DNA of 44,478 nt, from contig JBIJCJ010000002.1 in NCBI GenBank assembly GCA_044344765.1, forward strand, positions 1 to 44,478. The letters are read 5' to 3'. Shown in pieces: positions 1,882 through 31,612 of the stretch. Source of the DNA: Pirellulales bacterium. GTDB taxonomy: Bacteria; Planctomycetota; Planctomycetia; Pirellulales; UBA1268. Positions within the stretch are counted from its first letter, which is position 1; every line of letters starts with the position of its first letter. The position numbers were made by a program, and so were the translations under genes. Under the pieces are notes generated by a model. The model was not told the DNA's origin. It saw only the letters and a program-made list of their open reading frames with translations, and made no database searches.

Positions 1882-2157
1882 CGTACGGCTCACACTTGAT
1901 CCTCGCGCATGGTCGGCTTTGTCCCGATAGTGGAACAGACATCGGGCGTGACCACGCTTCGGAAGCCCCCGGCGGGAGCCGGGGGGTGACGGGCTGCGCC
2001 GGGATGAGGGGCTGCGCCGTGAAGACGGGTCGCCCCGCGGGTTTTGGGAGAACGCGGGAAGGCGATCCACAAGTCCACGGAGTGGACCGCGTCACCCCCG
2101 GGCTTCCGCCCGGGGCTTTTGGGGAGGAACGTGCGAGGATCAAGTGTGTGCCGTATC
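1882..2157. mobile_element. 276-bp non-coding element bounded by ~27-bp terminal inverted repeats (MITE-like, or a long-stem structured RNA)
   Basis: The reverse complement of 1882-1909 (cgtacggctcacacttgatcctcgcgca) matches 2131-2157 (gtgcgaggatcaagtgtgtgccgtatc) with about 3 mismatches. The interior holds further GC-rich inverted segments and no credible ORF. Confidence 0.55.
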
Positions 2158-3000: not shown

Positions 3001-3019
3001 TGGCGTCCCTCCGGCTTCG

Positions 3020-3105: not shown

Positions 3106-4680
3106 TCAGCCGCGGCGCAGGCGGCCGACCTGGAAGTCGGCGATTGCCGCCGCGCTGACGACGAGCACGGCCACGATCGCGGCCACGTTCCAGCGGAATG
3201 CGGCGGGGTCCGTGGCCAGCAGGATGGCGTAGCCGGCGAGCGCAGCCGCCGCGGCGATCCTCACCAGGCGGCGGTCGAGCCACAGCCCGGCCGCGGACAC
3301 GAGGACCGGGTGGGCGGCGACGAGCGGACTGTCCGCACCGCCCACCATCACCAATAGCGCGGTCACGAACGCCGCGTCGGTGACCACGAACGCGATGCCG
3401 GCCTGCCGCAGCGACAGCCGGCGGATCCCGAGCCACTCGCAGGCCGCCGCACAAGCCGCCCACAGGCCGAGGCCGATGGCGACCGGGCGGTAGAACGGCA
3501 CGGTCGTGGGATCGCCGAGGCAGCGGGCCGCGACGATGGCGATCGTGCCGAGGATGGCGGCCACCCGGAATCCGGCCGCGGGGTAGCGGCGCAGCACGCG
3601 GCCCAGGCGGTGCAACGGGCCGCCACCAGGCGGGGCGATGCGGTCGCCGCGGAGCCAGGCCTCGAGATCGTCGCCGACGGCCGCGGCCGTCGGATACCGG
3701 CGGGCCGGATCCTTCTCCAGGCATCGGAGGCAGATCTGCTGGAGCGCCGTCGGCACCTCCGGATGGAGCCGCCGCGGAGGCACGGGCTCGCGCTCCAGCA
3801 CGTTCATGACCACGAGCAGCCGTGTGTCGCCGGAGAAGGGCGGCCGGCCGGTGAGGGCCGTGTAGAGGATCGCTCCCAGGCCGTAGACGTCGCTGCGGGC
3901 GTCGAGGCCGCGGACTCGGCCTGCGGCCTGCTCCGGGGCCATGTACTCCGGCGTGCCGAGCACCGTGCCGGTGGCGGTAACGCCGTCTTCCGTGGCCGCG
4001 TCGCGGGCCAGGCCGAAGTCTGCCAGGTGTGGTGTGCCTGATGCGTCGAGCAGCACGTTCGAGGGCTTGAGGTCGCGGTGCAGGATGCCGCAGTCGTGGA
4101 GGTGGTGCACGGCCCGCGCCACCGCCGCAATCACGGTCGCCGCCGCGCGGGGCGACAGCGGCCCGGCCCGGAGGCGGGAGCCGAGGTCGTCCCCCGCGAC
4201 GAGATCCATGGCGAAGTAGAGCTGGCCGTCGTGTTCCCCGGCGTCGTGGATGGCGACGATCCCCGGATGTCGCACGCGGGCCGCGAGCCGGGCCTCGGCG
4301 AGGAATCGCCGCCGCTGCTCCGCGGTCGCGAACGCGCCCGCCGACAGCAGCTTCAGGGCCACGTCGCGGCCGAGCCGCTCGTGGCGGGCCCGATACACCA
4401 CGCCCATGCCGCCCCGCCCGAGCTCGGCGCCGACGGCGAACGGCCCGAAGCGCCGGCCGGTGAGCGATTCCGCGCCAGCCGCATGGGCCGCGTCGGGCGC
4501 GACGGTCGAGGCGAGATCGTCGAGGCCGCGGAGGCAGGCCGTCCACGCGGCGAGGGGGGGGCAGGCGGCGAGCAGGCGCCGTTCTTCAGCCGCGTCGGCC
4601 GCCTGGATCGCCGCCAGGTAGCGATCGAGAAGATCGGGATCGACCTCCGCGGCGGCAGCCGGCTCATCGGGCCGCGTCAT
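3106..4680 (-). CDS. Ser/Thr protein kinase with a C-terminal polytopic membrane domain
   Basis: Hanks kinase motifs: GRGGMGVVYRARH, VALK, HRDLKPSNVLL, DFGLAR, GTPEYMAPE. The C-terminal ~190 aa form several hydrophobic helices. The ATG at 4680 overlaps the sigma gene stop (ATGA). Confidence 0.85.
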   Translation of the reverse strand: MTRPDEPAAAAEVDPDLLDRYLAAIQAADAAEERRLLAACPPLAAWTACLRGLDDLASTVAPDAAHAAGAESLTGRRFGPFAVGAELGRGGMGVVYRARHERLGRDVALKLLSAGAFATAEQRRRFLAEARLAARVRHPGIVAIHDAGEHDGQLYFAMDLVAGDDLGSRLRAGPLSPRAAATVIAAVARAVHHLHDCGILHRDLKPSNVLLDASGTPHLADFGLARDAATEDGVTATGTVLGTPEYMAPEQAAGRVRGLDARSDVYGLGAILYTALTGRPPFSGDTRLLVVMNVLEREPVPPRRLHPEVPTALQQICLRCLEKDPARRYPTAAAVGDDLEAWLRGDRIAPPGGGPLHRLGRVLRRYPAAGFRVAAILGTIAIVAARCLGDPTTVPFYRPVAIGLGLWAACAAACEWLGIRRLSLRQAGIAFVVTDAAFVTALLVMVGGADSPLVAAHPVLVSAAGLWLDRRLVRIAAAAALAGYAILLATDPAAFRWNVAAIVAVLVVSAAAIADFQVGRLRRG

Positions 4681-13840: not shown

Positions 13841-14550
13841 ACGTCCACACGCAATTCGACATCGCCGCGGCCACCGCCGCGGCGGCGATGACCGTCGCCT
13901 GCTTCTTCTGGCGGCTCAAGGACGCGGCGGCACGGATCGAGCACGCCGGCTTCGGCTACGCCTTCGCCCTCGTGGGCGGTGCGGCCTTGGGCGGCTACGC
14001 GGCGGGCACCGCGAACCTGTGGCTTGCGGGGGAGCCGGGGGTGGCCCGGAGCATCGTGGGGGCGCTCGCCGGGGCGATCGCGGCGATCGAACTCTTCAAG
14101 CGGGCCCGCGGGATCACCGGCTCGACCGGGCTGATCTTCGTGCCGGCCTTCGCCACGAGCGTCGCCATCGGCCGCTGGGGCTGTTTTTATTCGGGGCTCA
14201 CCGACCACACCCACGGCTGCCCCACGACGCTCTCCTGGGGCCACGACTTCGGCGACCAGATTCCCCGCCACGCGGTGCAGCTCTACGAGTCGGCCGCGAT
14301 GGCCGCGTTCCTCATCTTTGCCCTCGTGATGCTCGCCCGCCGTGAGCCGTTCTTCATGAGGAACGGCTTCTACCTGATGGTGTTCTGGTACGCGGCGCAG
14401 CGGTTCGGCTGGGAGTTTCTCAAGCCCTATGCATCGCTGCTTGGGCCGCTCAACCTTTTCCATCTCGTCTGTCTGGGGCTGATGGGGTACGCCATCTGGA
14501 TGCTGCGGCGAAGTCGGCGGTCACAGGCCGCCTTACGAGGAAGGCCGTGA
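13837..14550 (+). CDS. divergent prolipoprotein diacylglyceryl transferase (Lgt)-family membrane protein
   Basis: GRWGCFYSG in place of the canonical GRxGNFxNxE, and RHAVQLYES in place of HPxQLYE. About 7 TM helices. The GTG start at 13837 overlaps the upstream stop. Confidence 0.65.
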   Translation: MNVHTQFDIAAATAAAAMTVACFFWRLKDAAARIEHAGFGYAFALVGGAALGGYAAGTANLWLAGEPGVARSIVGALAGAIAAIELFKRARGITGSTGLIFVPAFATSVAIGRWGCFYSGLTDHTHGCPTTLSWGHDFGDQIPRHAVQLYESAAMAAFLIFALVMLARREPFFMRNGFYLMVFWYAAQRFGWEFLKPYASLLGPLNLFHLVCLGLMGYAIWMLRRSRRSQAALRGRP

Positions 14551-14685
14551 GGGGTTGCCCATGCCCCGGGAGCCGGCGTAGCTGACCAGCGGAGGCAGGA
14601 TGCCGGAGCGCAGGCAGCTCCGAGAGAGCGGAGCCCAGGATGGGCGCAGCGAACGTCCGGCGATGGGGCATGGGCGACCCCGAAC
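14547..14685. repeat. family-C ~135-bp element with terminal inverted repeats (copy 1)
   Basis: ggggttgcccatgcccc (14551-14567) against ggggcatgggcgacccc (14664-14680). Its reverse complement aligns along its whole length with 28673-28809. Confidence 0.65.
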
Positions 14686-14761
14686 CCGCACCACCACGGA
14701 GCCTTTCACCGCCTGCCGCCGCGGGTAGGATGACTGCTTCGTTCTCCCTGGAGCACCCCTC

Positions 14762-15358: not shown

Positions 15359-15622
15359 TCACCGCGGACGCGGGGCGTCGCCGGGGCGGGCGGGGCCGCG
15401 GTTGGCGAACTTGCCGATGTCCTGCGTGTCGCCCGGCTCGAGCCGCGAGGCCCGCAGGTTCTCCCGCTGGATCGCCTCGTACACCTCCTGGCGGTGCACA
15501 GGAACCTCGGACGGGGCGTTGATTCCGAGCCGGACTTTGTCTCCCCGGATGTCCACGATCGTGACGACGATGTTGTCGCCGATCATGATGCTTTCGTCAC
15601 GTTGTCTGGAGAGCACGAGCAT
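15359..15622 (-). CDS. csrA: carbon storage regulator CsrA (with a ~25 aa C-terminal extension)
   Basis: MLVLSRQRDESIMIGDNIVVTIVDIRGDKVRLGINAPSEVPVHRQEVYE matches the CsrA signature. Confidence 0.9.
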   Translation of the reverse strand: MLVLSRQRDESIMIGDNIVVTIVDIRGDKVRLGINAPSEVPVHRQEVYEAIQRENLRASRLEPGDTQDIGKFANRGPARPGDAPRPR

Positions 15623-15684
15623 CGCGGGGGTCCTTCCTGATCCATGCGTGGCGTCGGCTTTCCTCCGCCGACGGTCACTTGTGA

Positions 15685-16125
15685 TTATGCGCTCTTCCTG
15701 AGCGGCGGACGGTCTTGATTGAGTTCGTATTGCAGAGGCAGCTCGCCGCTCGCAACGACTTGACGGCCGGTGCGGGCTTCGAGGTTGATGACGATCGGCG
15801 CTTTCAAATTGAGCGTGAGGGTTTTGCCGTTGGTGCCGACCACCAGCACGACCTGGGCCTGGCGGATGTCGGCGACGGCGAGGGGGGTGAGCTCGCTACG
15901 CGGGATCCGCACCTGGTAGTCGGGGACGAAGCGGCGCGGGCTGACCACCGCGATGGCCACGTCGCCGCGGGTCGTGCTCTGCAGCCAGCCGAGCGCGTCG
16001 TTGGTGGCGTCGGCGAGCAGGGCCCAGTCGCGGCAATCCTCGAGGCCGGGCAGTCCGCTGGCGAAGTGGATGACGTCGCCCATGTCGACGTCGATCCGTC
16101 CGAACCTGGTGGTGTTGATGCGCAT
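15685..16125 (-). CDS. fliW: flagellar assembly factor FliW (CsrA antagonist)
   Basis: ...FASGLPGLED...W..LQS....D.AIAVVSP..F.PDY.....LNLKAPIVIN... matches the FliW family. It lies directly upstream of csrA. Confidence 0.85.
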   Translation of the reverse strand: MRINTTRFGRIDVDMGDVIHFASGLPGLEDCRDWALLADATNDALGWLQSTTRGDVAIAVVSPRRFVPDYQVRIPRSELTPLAVADIRQAQVVLVVGTNGKTLTLNLKAPIVINLEARTGRQVVASGELPLQYELNQDRPPLRKSA

Positions 16126-28524: not shown

Positions 28525-28620
28525 CGTTCGCCCCGTAGCAGCAGTCTCTGGCCGTTGACGTTCAGTCTGTAGCGGTGGTCTCCGACCGTCGACGTTCACT
28601 CTGTAGCGGCGTGTGATGCC
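28524..28620. repeat. about 2.5 tandem family-A repeat units
   Basis: acgttcagtctgtagcggtggtctccgaccgtcgacg (28558-28594) with a degenerate unit on each side. The array starts at the amidase stop codon. Confidence 0.7.
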
Positions 28621-28672
28621 GGTCTTTTTACTACCGGGAGCATTCAACTAGTTGACACTTGATTGGGCACGG

Positions 28673-28809
28673 TTCAGGGTTGCCCATGCCCGCTCGCCGG
28701 CCGTTCGCTCCGGGCATCCATGCCCTCCGCTGACTCGGAGACGCCTGCGCTCTCGCCCCCGGGCTTCGCTGGCCACCTACGCCGGTTCCCTGGACACGGG
28801 CAACCCCTC
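28673..28809. repeat. family-C element (copy 2, inverted relative to copy 1)
   Basis: cagggttgcccatgccc...tacgccggttccctggacacgggcaacccctcac. It aligns with the reverse complement of 14547-14685. Confidence 0.65.
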
Positions 28810-28948
28810 ACGGACTCAACCACCAAAAACGTCAACTACAACGTGCTCTCGGTAGTATGTTTCGCGCCAATGCGAGCGGATTCGTCAAGGCAACGTTACG
28901 ATGTCTGCCTGCTTCTTCATGCGGTTCGCTGTGGCTATTGGCCGTCAT

Positions 28949-29992
28949 TTACCCCGCAGCCAGCCCGCCGAAGGCGTTGTCCACGTGATGGACGCCGCGG
29001 TTGTGGGCGATCGACTTGAGTCGCTCCGCGCGGGTCGCGCAGTACGTGCCGAGCCAACGAGTCTTGCCAACAAGTCTTTGCAGAGTTGACTGCCAATATT
29101 CGGCGCTCGTGCCCAGACGGGCCATGATGCCGGCGACTTCTTCGGTGACTCGCGCCTTGCCTTGGCGGCAGAGTCGGGCCGTCCAGTCCACGAGCACGAG
29201 GTAGCTGGAGAGTGAAAGTCCGGGCAGCATGCCTTCGCGGGAGTCGCCCGAGGCGCTGCGATCCTGGAGCGGGCAGAGCCAGTGGGATTGCTCGAGGTCG
29301 GCTTCGACTTCGGCCGCGGCGACTGATCGGGCTTTTGCGGCGGCCTGGAGGGTGTCCAGCCCGCCGGACGTGCGGGCGTGATCCACCCGCTGCTTGATCG
29401 AGGTGTGCGGGCTGGCTTCGGGAACCTTCGCGATCCCGGCTGCGACGGGGTTGAGGTCGATGTAGGTGCATGTCGCGAGCAGCGCTTCTTCGTCGAGGAT
29501 GGCGATCGACTTGTAGCGGGCTTCCCAGAACGTGCCCTTGCAGCCGTCTTCCTTGTTGGCCAGCCGCGCGAGTGGCTCCTTGAGGGCCTTCATGAACCAG
29601 CCGAGGTCTTGAAGTCGCTGGCGGTAGCGGGCGACACGGGCTGAGTCTTGGCACTCGTGAGCGATCCACGCCTGCAGCGTAGCGGGGTCGTCGGCGTCGA
29701 GGCACGACGGCGGATAGACGGCGATCCAGCGGCGAACGACGTCTTCGTCGGTCCAGTCTTCGGCCACGCCTGGGTCGAGCCGGCAGAGAACGTGGAGGTG
29801 GTTGTCGAGGATGGCGAATCCGCAGACGGAAACGGCGAATTGCCTGGCGAGGGCTTCGAGTCGGGTCTCGATCCAGGCTTTGCGGTGCTCGAAACCCTCC
29901 CCGCAGAGAAAGGCCCGTCGCACGCAGCGTGAAATGCAGTGGTAGTAGCGGGTGATCGCGATGTCTACCAACTGCCGCCTCGGCATCGTCAT
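28949..29992 (-). CDS. IS200/IS605-superfamily HUH (Y1) transposase, REP-associated tyrosine transposase (RAYT)-like
   Basis: HUH motif in ...FAILDNHLHVLC..., catalytic Tyr region ...TCTYIDLNPVAAG..., and the YYHCISRCVRRAFL N-terminus typical of COG1943-type proteins with a long C-terminal extension. Confidence 0.75.
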   Translation of the reverse strand: MTMPRRQLVDIAITRYYHCISRCVRRAFLCGEGFEHRKAWIETRLEALARQFAVSVCGFAILDNHLHVLCRLDPGVAEDWTDEDVVRRWIAVYPPSCLDADDPATLQAWIAHECQDSARVARYRQRLQDLGWFMKALKEPLARLANKEDGCKGTFWEARYKSIAILDEEALLATCTYIDLNPVAAGIAKVPEASPHTSIKQRVDHARTSGGLDTLQAAAKARSVAAAEVEADLEQSHWLCPLQDRSASGDSREGMLPGLSLSSYLVLVDWTARLCRQGKARVTEEVAGIMARLGTSAEYWQSTLQRLVGKTRWLGTYCATRAERLKSIAHNRGVHHVDNAFGGLAAG

Positions 29993-30055
29993 CGCGGGAG
30001 CCTCCTGCGGGATCTAGATACTGAACAACCGTATCCTACGGCTCCCGCGGCCGGT

Positions 30056-30425
30056 CGTCAACGATTACGCTGTCAACGATTACGCCTGTACTTTTTCTTT
30101 TCTAACGATTACGCCTGTCCTTTTTCTTCTTTTCTTCTTTACGCCTGTCCTTTTGGCTCTTTTGGCTCTTTTGGCTCTTTTCCTTTTGGCTTTGGGCTTC
30201 GCCTGTCCTTTTGGTCCCGTCTTCTATTACGCCTGTCCTTTTGGCTTTCGCGCCTGTCCTTTTGGCTTTTTCTTTTGGCTTTGGGCTTCGCCTGTCCTTT
30301 TGGTCCCGTCTTCTATTACGCCTGTCCTTTTGGCTTTTGGCTTTTCTTCCGCCTGTCCTTTTGGCCTCGCTTCTTCCGCCTGTCCTTTTGGCTTCTTTCT
30401 TCCGCCTGTCCTTTTGGCTTTTGGC
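30056..30425. repeat. AT-rich, strand-asymmetric array of ~11 copies of cgcctgtccttttgg, including an 89-bp internal duplication
   Basis: Units start at 30083 (variant), 30112, 30142, 30200, 30230, 30251, 30289, 30319, 30350, 30377 and 30403. Segments 30184-30246 and 30273-30335 are near-identical. aacgattacgc occurs 3 times at 30060-30114. Confidence 0.85.
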
Positions 30426-30460
30426 TTTCAGCAACACGATGAATCCGGGTACAAGATTCA

Positions 30461-30530
30461 CGGCGAGCCTCCTTGCTCAAAGTGAATGGGTGTAGAAGTC
30501 CATCCACTGTGACGGAGGCTCGCCGCTTTT
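30461..30530 (+). terminator. hairpin plus T-run downstream of the array (possible plus-strand terminator)
   Basis: cggcgagcctcc (30461-30472) pairs perfectly with ggaggctcgccg (30514-30525) and is followed by cttttc. The loop is long (41 nt), so the call is weak. Confidence 0.3.
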
Positions 30531-30607
30531 CAGAGGGCAGTTTCAGCCCTGGAATCAGCCCTCAAAAACTGCAAAAGTCGAGCTTAGTGCCAAGTGCGTA
30601 ACTTGGG

Positions 30608-31612
30608 CTAGCCGCCGAGGCGGGCGGTGACGACGCGGGCCATCTGGTCGATGGAGAGCACCTCGCAGGCCGCACCGGCGTCGATCGCCGCCTTGGGCAT
30701 GCTCCACACGACGCTCGTCGCCTCGTCCTGGGCGATCGTGTGCCAGCCCCGGCCCCGGAGGGTCGCCAAGCCCTTCGCGCCGTCCTTGCCCATGCCGGTG
30801 AGCAGGATGGCGGCGCCGATCTGCGGCCAGTGGTCGGCCACGCTCGTGAAGAACACGTCCACGCTGGGGCGGAAGAACACCTCGCGAGGCTCCTCGCGAT
30901 ATTCCAGGGTCCGCGCCTTCGAGAGCACGAGGTGGTCGTTGGTGCCAGCGAGCAGCACGTCTCCGGCCTGCGGCTGCTGCCCGTGCTCCGCCACGCGGAC
31001 GGACCGGCCGGTGCGGTCGCCGAGCCACTTGGCGAGTCCCGGGGCGAACGCGACGTCGACATGCTGAACGACGACGGTGGCCACGTTCCAGTCCTGCGGC
31101 AAGGGGAGGAGCAGGTCGGCGATCGCCTTCGGGCCGCCCGTCGAGGCGCCGATCACCAGGAGCCGGGGCGGCGCGCCGCCGGCCCGCGCCGCCGGCCGCC
31201 TGCGGCTCTCGCCGGCAGGGCCGACGAGCTTGGCGATGACGCCGATCTTCTCGACGAGCGCCCCGGCGCCACTCACCGCGCCCGCCGGGCCGAGCATCGG
31301 CGTATCGACCGCGTCGAGGGCGCCATAGCCCATGGCGTCGTAGACGAGCGAGATGTTGCCGCTCACCGTGGCGGTGACCACGAGGATGGCGCAGGGGGCC
31401 GCCGCCATGATCTGCCGGGTGGCCTGGGCGCCGTCCATGTGCGGCATGAGCAGGTCCATGAGGATCAGGTCGGGACGGTCGCGCTTCGCGAGCGCCACCG
31501 CCTCGACCCCGTTGCCCGCCGTCCACGCGACCTCGTGATCGGGGAGGCTGTCCACGACGCGCCGCAACGCCTCGCAGGCCGCCCGCATGTCGTTGACGAT
31601 GCCGATCCTCAT
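30608..31612 (-). CDS. cheB: protein-glutamate methylesterase CheB (WspF-like), REC plus methylesterase
   Basis: REC domain (IGIVNDM...DLILMDLLMPHMDG) and the CheB catalytic domain (LLVIGASTGGPKA..., ...ILLTGMGKDGA..., ...TIAQDEATSVVWSMP). Confidence 0.9.
   Translation of the reverse strand: MRIGIVNDMRAACEALRRVVDSLPDHEVAWTAGNGVEAVALAKRDRPDLILMDLLMPHMDGAQATRQIMAAAPCAILVVTATVSGNISLVYDAMGYGALDAVDTPMLGPAGAVSGAGALVEKIGVIAKLVGPAGESRRRPAARAGGAPPRLLVIGASTGGPKAIADLLLPLPQDWNVATVVVQHVDVAFAPGLAKWLGDRTGRSVRVAEHGQQPQAGDVLLAGTNDHLVLSKARTLEYREEPREVFFRPSVDVFFTSVADHWPQIGAAILLTGMGKDGAKGLATLRGRGWHTIAQDEATSVVWSMPKAAIDAGAACEVLSIDQMARVVTARLGG

Follow-up and report, generated by a model that had tools for sequence, protein, structure and literature searches.

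A hypervariable array of short direct repeats next to cheB in a Pirellulales bacterium is probably an amplified upstream repeat field of a RAYT-like HUH/Y1 gene family

Introduction

The 44,478-nucleotide (nt) stretch of contig JBIJCJ010000002.1 from a Pirellulales bacterium (assembly GCA_044344765.1), called the window here at its full length, contains between the chemotaxis gene cheB and a gene for a RAYT-like HUH/Y1 protein a segment of low GC content in which a short motif is repeated about 11 times. What is this array, and to which of its neighbors does it belong? An earlier note, based on the sequence alone, had proposed that it encodes an RNA, with a multi-GGA sponge for the regulator CsrA as the minus-strand candidate and a CU-rich regulatory transcript as the plus-strand candidate, and had listed a protein-binding iteron field and a recognition site of the adjacent HUH transposase as further alternatives. 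The association of the motif with homologs of the Y1 protein favors the last of these alternatives. The motif belongs to the Y1 gene and not to cheB or csrA, and nothing ties it specifically to chemotaxis or CsrA. Judged from sequence comparison, the array is probably the amplified upstream recognition-repeat field of the Y1 gene family.

Results

The array and the adjacent Y1 gene

The features that are central to this question are as follows.

30084 to 30428, plus strand: motif array, 11 copies of GCCTGTCCTTTT (repeat searches and motif counts)
30177 to 30248 and 30266 to 30337, plus strand: internal duplication, 99% identical, with an offset of 89 bp (repeat search)
30033 to 30061, minus strand: sigma-70-type promoter of the Y1 gene, TTGACG-N17-TAGGAT (promoter scan; boxes kept in homologs)
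28949 to 29992, minus strand: HUH/Y1 (RAYT-like) gene, 347 amino acids (Pfam Y1_Tnp, NCBIfam, and fold matches)

The 12-nt core GCCTGTCCTTTT, which reads AAAAGGACAGGC on the sense strand of the Y1 gene, was found on the plus strand in 10 exact copies and one copy with a single mismatch. These copies start at positions 30084, 30113, 30143, 30201, 30231, 30252, 30290, 30320, 30351, 30378, and 30404, resulting in spacings of 29, 30, 58, 30, 21, 38, 30, 31, 27, and 26 nt. A 15-mer, CGCCTGTCCTTTTGG, occurs between 30112 and 30417 on the plus strand in nine exact copies and one with two mismatches; 0.08 matches are expected by chance, and none of 100 shuffles contained 10 or more. The spacers consist largely of repeats of the motif's own 3' part (CTTTTGG, CTTTTGGCT), and this is the single array of the motif in the 44-kb window. 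The GC content of the array segment (30086 to 30430) is 47.5%, compared to 70.7% for the whole window, and its plus strand is composed of 49% T, 30% C, 18% G, and 3% A. The earlier note's estimate of about 11 copies at irregular distances of 21 to 58 nt, its 89-bp internal duplication, and its AT richness were hence confirmed, whereas its description of the segment as almost pure pyrimidine was overstated, since pyrimidines amount to 79%, with A nearly absent. A protein-coding function of the array was rejected: the unit lengths, 21 to 58 nt, do not follow a three-base period, and the open reading frames (ORFs) placed there by other pipelines had no Pfam matches and differed among strains.

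The Y1 protein contains an HUH motif (H65-L66-H67), the residues W156-E157, and a catalytic-type tyrosine, Y177, within YIDLNP, and all of these are invariant among 34 homologs. The Pfam Y1_Tnp profile matched with 24.5 bits, barely over its cutoff, and the score for NCBIfam REP_Tyr_transpos (NF047646), the curated RAYT equivalog, was 41.6 bits, under the cutoff of 80. An AlphaFold model of moderate confidence (predicted local distance difference test [pLDDT] of 69) had as its top fold match 4ER8, the Escherichia coli TnpA-REP, followed by ISDra2 and IS608 TnpA structures; the C-terminal half of the protein is helical. A sequence search of the PDB with the Y1 protein yielded a chance-level match only.

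The motif accompanies Y1 homologs at unrelated loci

To follow the motif outside the window, we searched a set of 185,579 species genomes for pairs of motif copies separated by 5 to 35 nt and obtained more than 118 loci. About three-quarters of the 80 titled loci were from metagenome-assembled genomes (MAGs) of Planctomycetota, often with many loci per MAG, and about one-quarter of 118 loci had a Y1 homolog inside the stored 8 kb. This sample is biased by the motif, and a second sample consisted of 80 metagenome loci that were found through the Y1 protein alone. A number of observations were derived from these two samples. (i) The motif has a defined orientation. Considering the loci of the protein-led sample with at least 150 nt of upstream sequence, the 12-mer with up to one mismatch was present upstream in sense orientation in 29 of 63 and in the opposite orientation in none, and each of the 22 full-length homologs with 60% identity or more had the 8-mer GGACAGGC upstream, with about 0.006 occurrences expected per locus. 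(ii) The motif has a defined position. Its nearest copy is mostly 70 to 92 nt before the ATG of the homolog and abuts a conserved -35 box, so that the motif, (A)AGGACAGGCAT or a clade variant of it, is a fixed-orientation feature directly upstream of the family's own -35 box. (iii) The motif varies together with the protein. More distant homologs have GACATGC or GACACCC in place of GACAGGC, and in 15 of 19 unbiased cases the variant upstream of the gene was the same as the inverted one downstream of it. A single consensus, aAAGGACAGGCAT, describes the inner, the outer, and the downstream copies. (iv) The motif is not restricted to one phylum. Gammaproteobacterial homologs of 34 to 39% identity, from Pseudoalteromonas and others, are preceded by exactly this 12-mer and followed by inverted copies of it; a Pseudoalteromonas gene annotated in RefSeq as "transposase" is preceded by AGACACCCA and followed by two copies of TGGGTGTCT. 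(v) The motif is independent of the gene context. A homolog of 86% identity has a glycoside hydrolase gene on one side and a gene block with SecA on the other, instead of cheB, and the length of its upstream spacer is strain variable.

In the window, the promoter scan found one promoter-like site at the Y1 gene compared to 0.2 expected, and both of its boxes are conserved in homolog loci. The nearest motif copy lies 91 nt before the Y1 ATG, owing to the duplication of a 15-nt segment that includes the -35 box.

30057 to 30085, plus strand: two copies of GTCAACGATTACGC, a 15-nt duplication of the inner part of the repeat unit that includes the -35 box (repeat searches)

Homolog loci contain one or two copies of the equivalent segment, ATAATCCTTGAC. 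A different arrangement was seen in a homolog of 88% identity (L157, upstream of position 3001), which has no motif and whose similarity to the other loci begins exactly at the -35 box, suggesting a rearrangement breakpoint between motif and promoter. With respect to taxonomy, the labels of some loci are to be read with caution: Y1 homologs of 80 to 86% identity are found on GC-rich contigs labeled as Chitinophagaceae MAG (L030 and L132) or as Candidatus Kuenenia MAG (L049 and L063), taxon assignments that are unlikely, and these contigs are probably misbinned.

The close position to the promoter raises the question of whether the motif is read by a host factor, or is an A-tract or UP-like promoter element, instead of being recognized by the Y1 protein. 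Its place directly upstream of the -35 box and its A-rich sense strand are in agreement with such a role. However, the same motif also follows the gene as inverted copies and makes up doublets that have no gene at all, and the motif variant follows the protein clade and is common to two phyla. We thus consider recognition by a host factor improbable and regard the motif as a feature of the Y1 gene family.

Inverted copies and dispersed doublets

For neighboring cores of opposite orientation, the order GGACAGGC...GCCTGTCC, in which the A and T runs point outward, was observed 56 times versus 14 times for the reverse order. The gaps between such cores formed two groups, of 14 to 90 nt and of about 1230 to 1405 nt, and it is the longer group that encloses a Y1 gene. 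The short doublets examined were gene-less, appeared to be intergenic, and were scattered through Planctomycetota MAGs; two of them, folded as single-stranded DNA (ssDNA), formed strong hairpins (z scores of -7.1 and -7.4). The layout of the family is thus REPtron/REPIN-like and is made from a nonpalindromic half-site. In many family members, the motif is mirrored downstream of the gene; it is dispersed as hairpin doublets, covaries with the protein, and is prone to amplification.

Variation of the array among strains

Ten metagenome contigs (L001 to L010), compared with window positions 28525 to 29992, carry a Y1 gene of 100.000% nucleotide identity to that of the window. The 424-nt 3' intergenic region of the gene was an exact match in nine of the 10, and the differences to the window amounted to 2.3% for cheB and 2 to 4.7% for the amidase gene, a distribution which suggests that the Y1 cassette may have spread recently by recombination or another homogenizing process. 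Strains with the 100% identical Y1 gene have 4, 5, 9, or 10 exact motif copies, and their arrays can be aligned over 73 to 76%. One array allele is common to five independent contigs, and another is common to the window and L005, with a difference of one unit. Variation extends to the spacer between the array and cheB.

30431 to 30607, no strand: strain-variable spacer from the array to the cheB stop codon, containing a hairpin with a 12-bp stem (locus comparison)

Sister strains (L001, 2018 to 2245; L003; L004) have in place of this spacer an unrelated, hairpin-rich dispersed repeat that has 89% identity over 84 nt to window positions 2063 to 2146 and is also found at 1960 to 1991. This replacement identifies the outer edge of the array as a site of repeat turnover. 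Across the family, short tandem reiterations were more frequent in the outer than in the inner flank of the motif (P = 1e-9, n = 186); typically, the outer half of the motif is duplicated together with 5 to 10 flanking bases. Most homologs have only 1 to 4 motif copies, but at least 8 were found upstream of one of them.

Amplifications of other kinds were also noted. Directly downstream of a frameshifted Y1 homolog, L119 contains at 3745 to 4045 a spacer-free amplification of 24 perfect head-to-tail 13-mers, TGCCTGTCCTTTT. In L063 (1940 to 3430; also L061 at 1440 to 2300, L142, L143, and L147), the left end of the element, consisting of the motif, the promoter, and the first 36 to 83 Y1 codons, is tandemly duplicated, and the new motif copy directly abuts the truncated Y1 gene fragment.

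These data are compatible with the following model. The Y1 protein would bind the motif and would probably nick at or near its T-run edge; binding at the promoter-proximal copy may couple the protein to its own expression, corresponding to autoregulation; and the extra copies may originate from successive rounds in which a short stretch at the outer edge of the motif, where the T-run lies, is duplicated in tandem, by slippage or by nick-induced resynthesis. Duplication at this edge would explain both the spacers that reiterate the 3' end of the motif and the differences in copy number among near-identical strains. For the extra copies of the array, we slightly favor such a nick-and-slip origin.

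A related question is whether all copies matter. Only the promoter-proximal copy or copies may be functional, as operator or end site, whereas the other approximately nine would be a neutral, hypervariable minisatellite seeded by the T-run. The low copy number in most homologs, the shifts in copy number among near-identical strains without obvious constraint, and the spacers made of CTTTTGG reiterations fit this interpretation. However, amplification is recurrent, with independent cases in many lineages and affecting both ends, and 10 of the 11 copies retain an exact core despite drifting spacers, which suggests that the core is maintained or was copied very recently. We therefore regard a neutral minisatellite as rather unlikely and retain the view that the array as a whole is an amplified recognition-repeat field.

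RNA-based explanations

Do the array and its surroundings have the properties of an RNA gene? The genes around the array are those for an amidase, the Y1 protein, CheB, and CheA. The neighbors named in the earlier note, cheB and the RAYT-like gene, as well as csrA with fliW within the window, were all found.

30608 to 31612, minus strand: cheB, a neighbor outside the element (Pfam CheB_methylest and Response_reg; Y1 homologs occur in other gene contexts)
15359 to 16125, minus strand: fliW (146 amino acids) and csrA (87 amino acids), adjacent to each other and about 15 kb from the array (gene calls)

According to the sponge hypothesis, a minus-strand RNA, for example, a cheA-cheB read-through transcript with about 10 AAGGA sites, titrates the FliW-type CsrA, whose gene lies at a distance of 15 kb. 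Several features speak for it. The count of 16 GGA trinucleotides on the minus strand between 30118 and 30411 is correct, and AGGA occurs 10 times on this strand; csrA and fliW are both in the window; no terminator-like site separates cheB from the array on this strand; and GCC-AAAAGGACA-GGC, as present in this lineage, can form 3-bp stems with GGA in the loop. In the minimum free energy fold of the minus strand, some of the 16 GGA indeed lie in 9-nt loops of 3-bp stems. However, the fold of the minus strand as a whole (30056 to 30540) was not better than that of shuffled sequences (z score of -1.5), and the 3-bp stems depend on the lineage-specific GGC, which is missing from other arrays. The window had no match in Rfam at gathering scores, and nothing relevant was found in 29900 to 30700 at E values up to 10. 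A promoter scan of 29900 to 30700 detected no site on either strand from which a transcript of the array could start, the sole promoter-like site being that of the Y1 gene, downstream of the array. In addition, the motif follows Y1 genes in any context, including that of Gammaproteobacteria, and strains of the same population have only 4 or 5 copies and a different adjoining spacer. A CsrA sponge at this locus is thus very improbable.

The second proposal, a plus-strand CU-rich small RNA that runs through the array and is terminated at the hairpin at 30461 to 30525, fared no better. The hairpin exists, with a perfect 12-bp outer stem (30461 to 30472 and 30514 to 30525) and a 41-nt loop that contains a second stem, and it is followed on the plus strand by CTTTTC. 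The earlier note had taken hairpin and T-run as a possible terminator; yet the T-run is just four T long, the terminator scan did not accept the site, and on the minus strand the hairpin has no U-tract. There is no promoter-like site on the plus strand in 29900 to 30700, the plus-strand fold of 30056 to 30540 is indistinguishable from shuffles (z score of +0.1), and hairpin and spacer are missing from sister strains that have other sequence there. We consider this RNA extremely improbable.

The earlier note itself had named the regular company of the array with RAYT genes at other loci as an outcome that would speak against an RNA. The comparison of relatives that it had suggested showed that, in other genomes, the motif array is found together with RAYT-like genes at loci that are otherwise unrelated, and the RNA-based explanations are on this ground disfavored. 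A combination of both ideas, in which transposase-derived repeats in the 3' untranslated region of a cheA-cheB read-through transcript would have been recruited to act on a FliW-type CsrA, as the first RNA of the sponge kind for such a protein and with strain-variable copy number tuning motility, is likewise very unlikely. A plasmid- or virus-type origin, with the array as its iteron field, was rejected as well, since the neighbors of the array include no initiator or Rep gene.

Other sequences at the Y1 locus and other repeats in the window

Both flanks of the Y1 coding sequence contain further features.

29993 to 30049, minus strand: 5' leader with a 10-bp perfect inverted repeat (29993 to 30002 and 30040 to 30049; inverted-repeat search)
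28870 to 28948, minus strand: 3' flank of the Y1 gene of about 75 nt, about 80% conserved in a subclade of homolog loci (locus alignment)

The leader repeat is conserved only in part in homologs. Its arms surround the -10 box, and since the upstream arm lies upstream of this box, it should be absent from mRNA made from the Y1 promoter; the repeat would therefore pair the region before the ATG in read-through RNA only. Occlusion of the start region that is confined to read-through transcripts is a feature of IS10 and IS200. The 3' flank could be a right-end or regulatory sequence. A small ORF of 34 to 38 amino acids starts at the Y1 stop codon, but the peptide is not conserved in homologs although the DNA is, indicating that 28870 to 28948 is noncoding. 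Y1 homologs of other subclades have different conserved 3' flanks.

The window contains two additional repeat families. A separate family that looks like classical REPs, with units of the CTGTAGCGGCGGTCTCCGACCGTCGTGCAT type in which a GTAG tag is followed by an imperfect palindrome (CGGCGGTC/GACCGTCG), is found at 753 to 1056, as a tandem cluster, and at 28553 to 28610, as two copies between the Y1 gene and the next gene downstream. The other family is a dispersed element with a length of about 146 nt; it is present at 28671 to 28816 and 14542 to 14686, with 80% identity, and in related organisms (L139, L144, and L049); its inverted arms (28677 to 28691 and 28792 to 28806) give it a miniature inverted-repeat transposable element-like appearance.

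Discussion

Relation to known systems

RAYT-like genes flanked at a fixed distance by inverted repeats other than REPs, termed TIRYT genes, were described by Di Nocera et al. (2013; PMC3733652); their repeats share the motif GGGGWSAS (GGGG[AT][CG]A[CG]) and are also dispersed as singles, dimers, and groups. Quentin et al. (2018; PMC6006769) classified the TIRYTs as TnpAY1 subclass 2.1. According to the same authors, subclass 2.3 (median of 325 amino acids, HuH-to-Y distance of 110, WE and YVDLNP motifs, additional C-terminal domains) occurs in Alteromonadales and Chromatiales, is phylogenetically nested in subclass 2.1, and has no identifiable REP-like flanking structures.

We compared the Y1 locus with five systems. 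(i) It resembles TIRtrons in what characterizes them: the gene is RAYT-like, and a repeat that is not a REP lies at a roughly constant distance from its coding region. The motif is likewise dispersed, in Planctomycetota MAGs. Set against the published consensus only, AAGGACAG fits at 6 of 8 positions (GGACAG and GGACAC corresponding to the last six), and distant Y1 homologs have GGGGACACCC or GGGGACAC, the latter being a full fit. In contrast to TIRYTs, the window protein has the 2.3 and not the 2.1 signature, no HTH (helix-turn-helix) or DnaA_C-like domain was detected in it, and in the window, as in the clade of at least 78% identity, the copies are confined to the upstream side instead of being on both sides, with 11 direct copies in the window. 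(ii) With the REPtrons of E. coli and Pseudomonas it has in common an HUH/Y1 gene with HUH and tyrosine, the fold match to 4ER8, clustered intergenic arrays, inverted flanking repeats in many homolog loci, and, in related Planctomycetota MAGs, dispersed inverted doublets that fold as ssDNA hairpins. Unlike REPs, the array unit is nonpalindromic and has no GTAG or GTGG tag, all copies in the window are direct with no inverted flanking copy, and the protein remains under the REP_Tyr_transpos cutoff. Since these REP features are lacking and the protein is below the RAYT equivalog cutoff, we did not assign the system to the canonical REP/RAYT category. (iii) The protein fits TnpAY1 subclass 2.3 by its signature, namely, 347 amino acids (median, 325), a distance of 112 between H65 and Y177 (median, 110), W156-E157, YIDLNP, a helical C-terminal half, and homologs in Alteromonadales. 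It deviates in having NHLH instead of NHYH as HuH, in its Planctomycetota rather than Chromatiales or Alteromonadales hosts, and in the conserved nonpalindromic flank motif of its family. (iv) CsrB, CsrC, RsmY, and RsmZ similarly have many GGA in a short one-strand stretch, but the array has no discrete transcription unit, Rfam match, or link to csrA, and its motif is a DNA feature of transposase-like genes. (v) The iteron fields of HUH Rep proteins (geminivirus and circovirus origins and the Rep-binding element of adeno-associated virus) are also tandem direct repeats by an HUH endonuclease gene and overlapping a promoter; here, however, a superfamily 3 helicase Rep and a nonanucleotide-bearing origin hairpin are both absent, and nothing points to a replicon.

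Taken together, the 2.3 signature and a motif core that fits the last six TIRYT positions indicate a system of an already known kind. A literature search with the motif string returned unrelated primer sequences only, and a search for follow-up work on TIRYT or TnpAY1 gave nothing beyond the two studies cited above. A nonpalindromic flank motif for 2.3-type proteins, its conservation in two phyla, and its tandem amplification and hypervariability do not appear in Quentin et al. (2018) or in the accessible part of Di Nocera et al. (2013).

Evidence against a recognition-repeat field

Several results weigh against the interpretation of the array as an amplified recognition-repeat field. To our knowledge, the substrates of all biochemically characterized TnpA/RAYT enzymes are palindromic, in contrast to the unit of the array: the direct units of the window, folded as ssDNA, gave z scores of -0.2 and -0.6. 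No inverted motif copy is present in the window downstream of the Y1 gene, even when two mismatches are permitted, and downstream copies are likewise lacking in the homologs of at least 78% identity to the window protein, all copies being upstream, making current mobility doubtful for the window and this clade. The C-terminal half of the Y1 protein, modeled alone, had a pLDDT of 58, and a fold search with this model found no match (best E value of 7). A Pfam search of the same half at E values up to 10 returned nothing, including no HTH or DnaA_C-like domain. Given the low confidence of this model and the lack of a fold match, no DNA-binding domain can be assigned. Finally, the differences in array length are derived from short-read metagenome assemblies, which can misassemble repeats, although five independent contigs agree in one allele and the window and L005 in another. 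Since the element in the window is one-sided, the array is less likely to mark the end of an element that is mobile at present than to be a binding or regulatory field and a by-product of the enzyme's activity.

Significance

A sponge RNA for FliW-type CsrA, attractive as a candidate, has no support at the array locus. For mobile-element biology, the value of the finding is modest, the array being a fairly ordinary part of a mobile-element-type system. What is added is a conserved, nonpalindromic motif of 10 to 12 nt that is now tied to a long RAYT-like family with the TnpAY1 2.3 signature, is common to Planctomycetota and Gammaproteobacteria, and covaries with the Y1 protein. The outer edge of this motif is a hot spot of tandem duplication that gives rise to hypervariable arrays. 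The motif thereby provides a concrete substrate for the study of DNA recognition by such Y1 enzymes and of the growth of BIME-like clusters.

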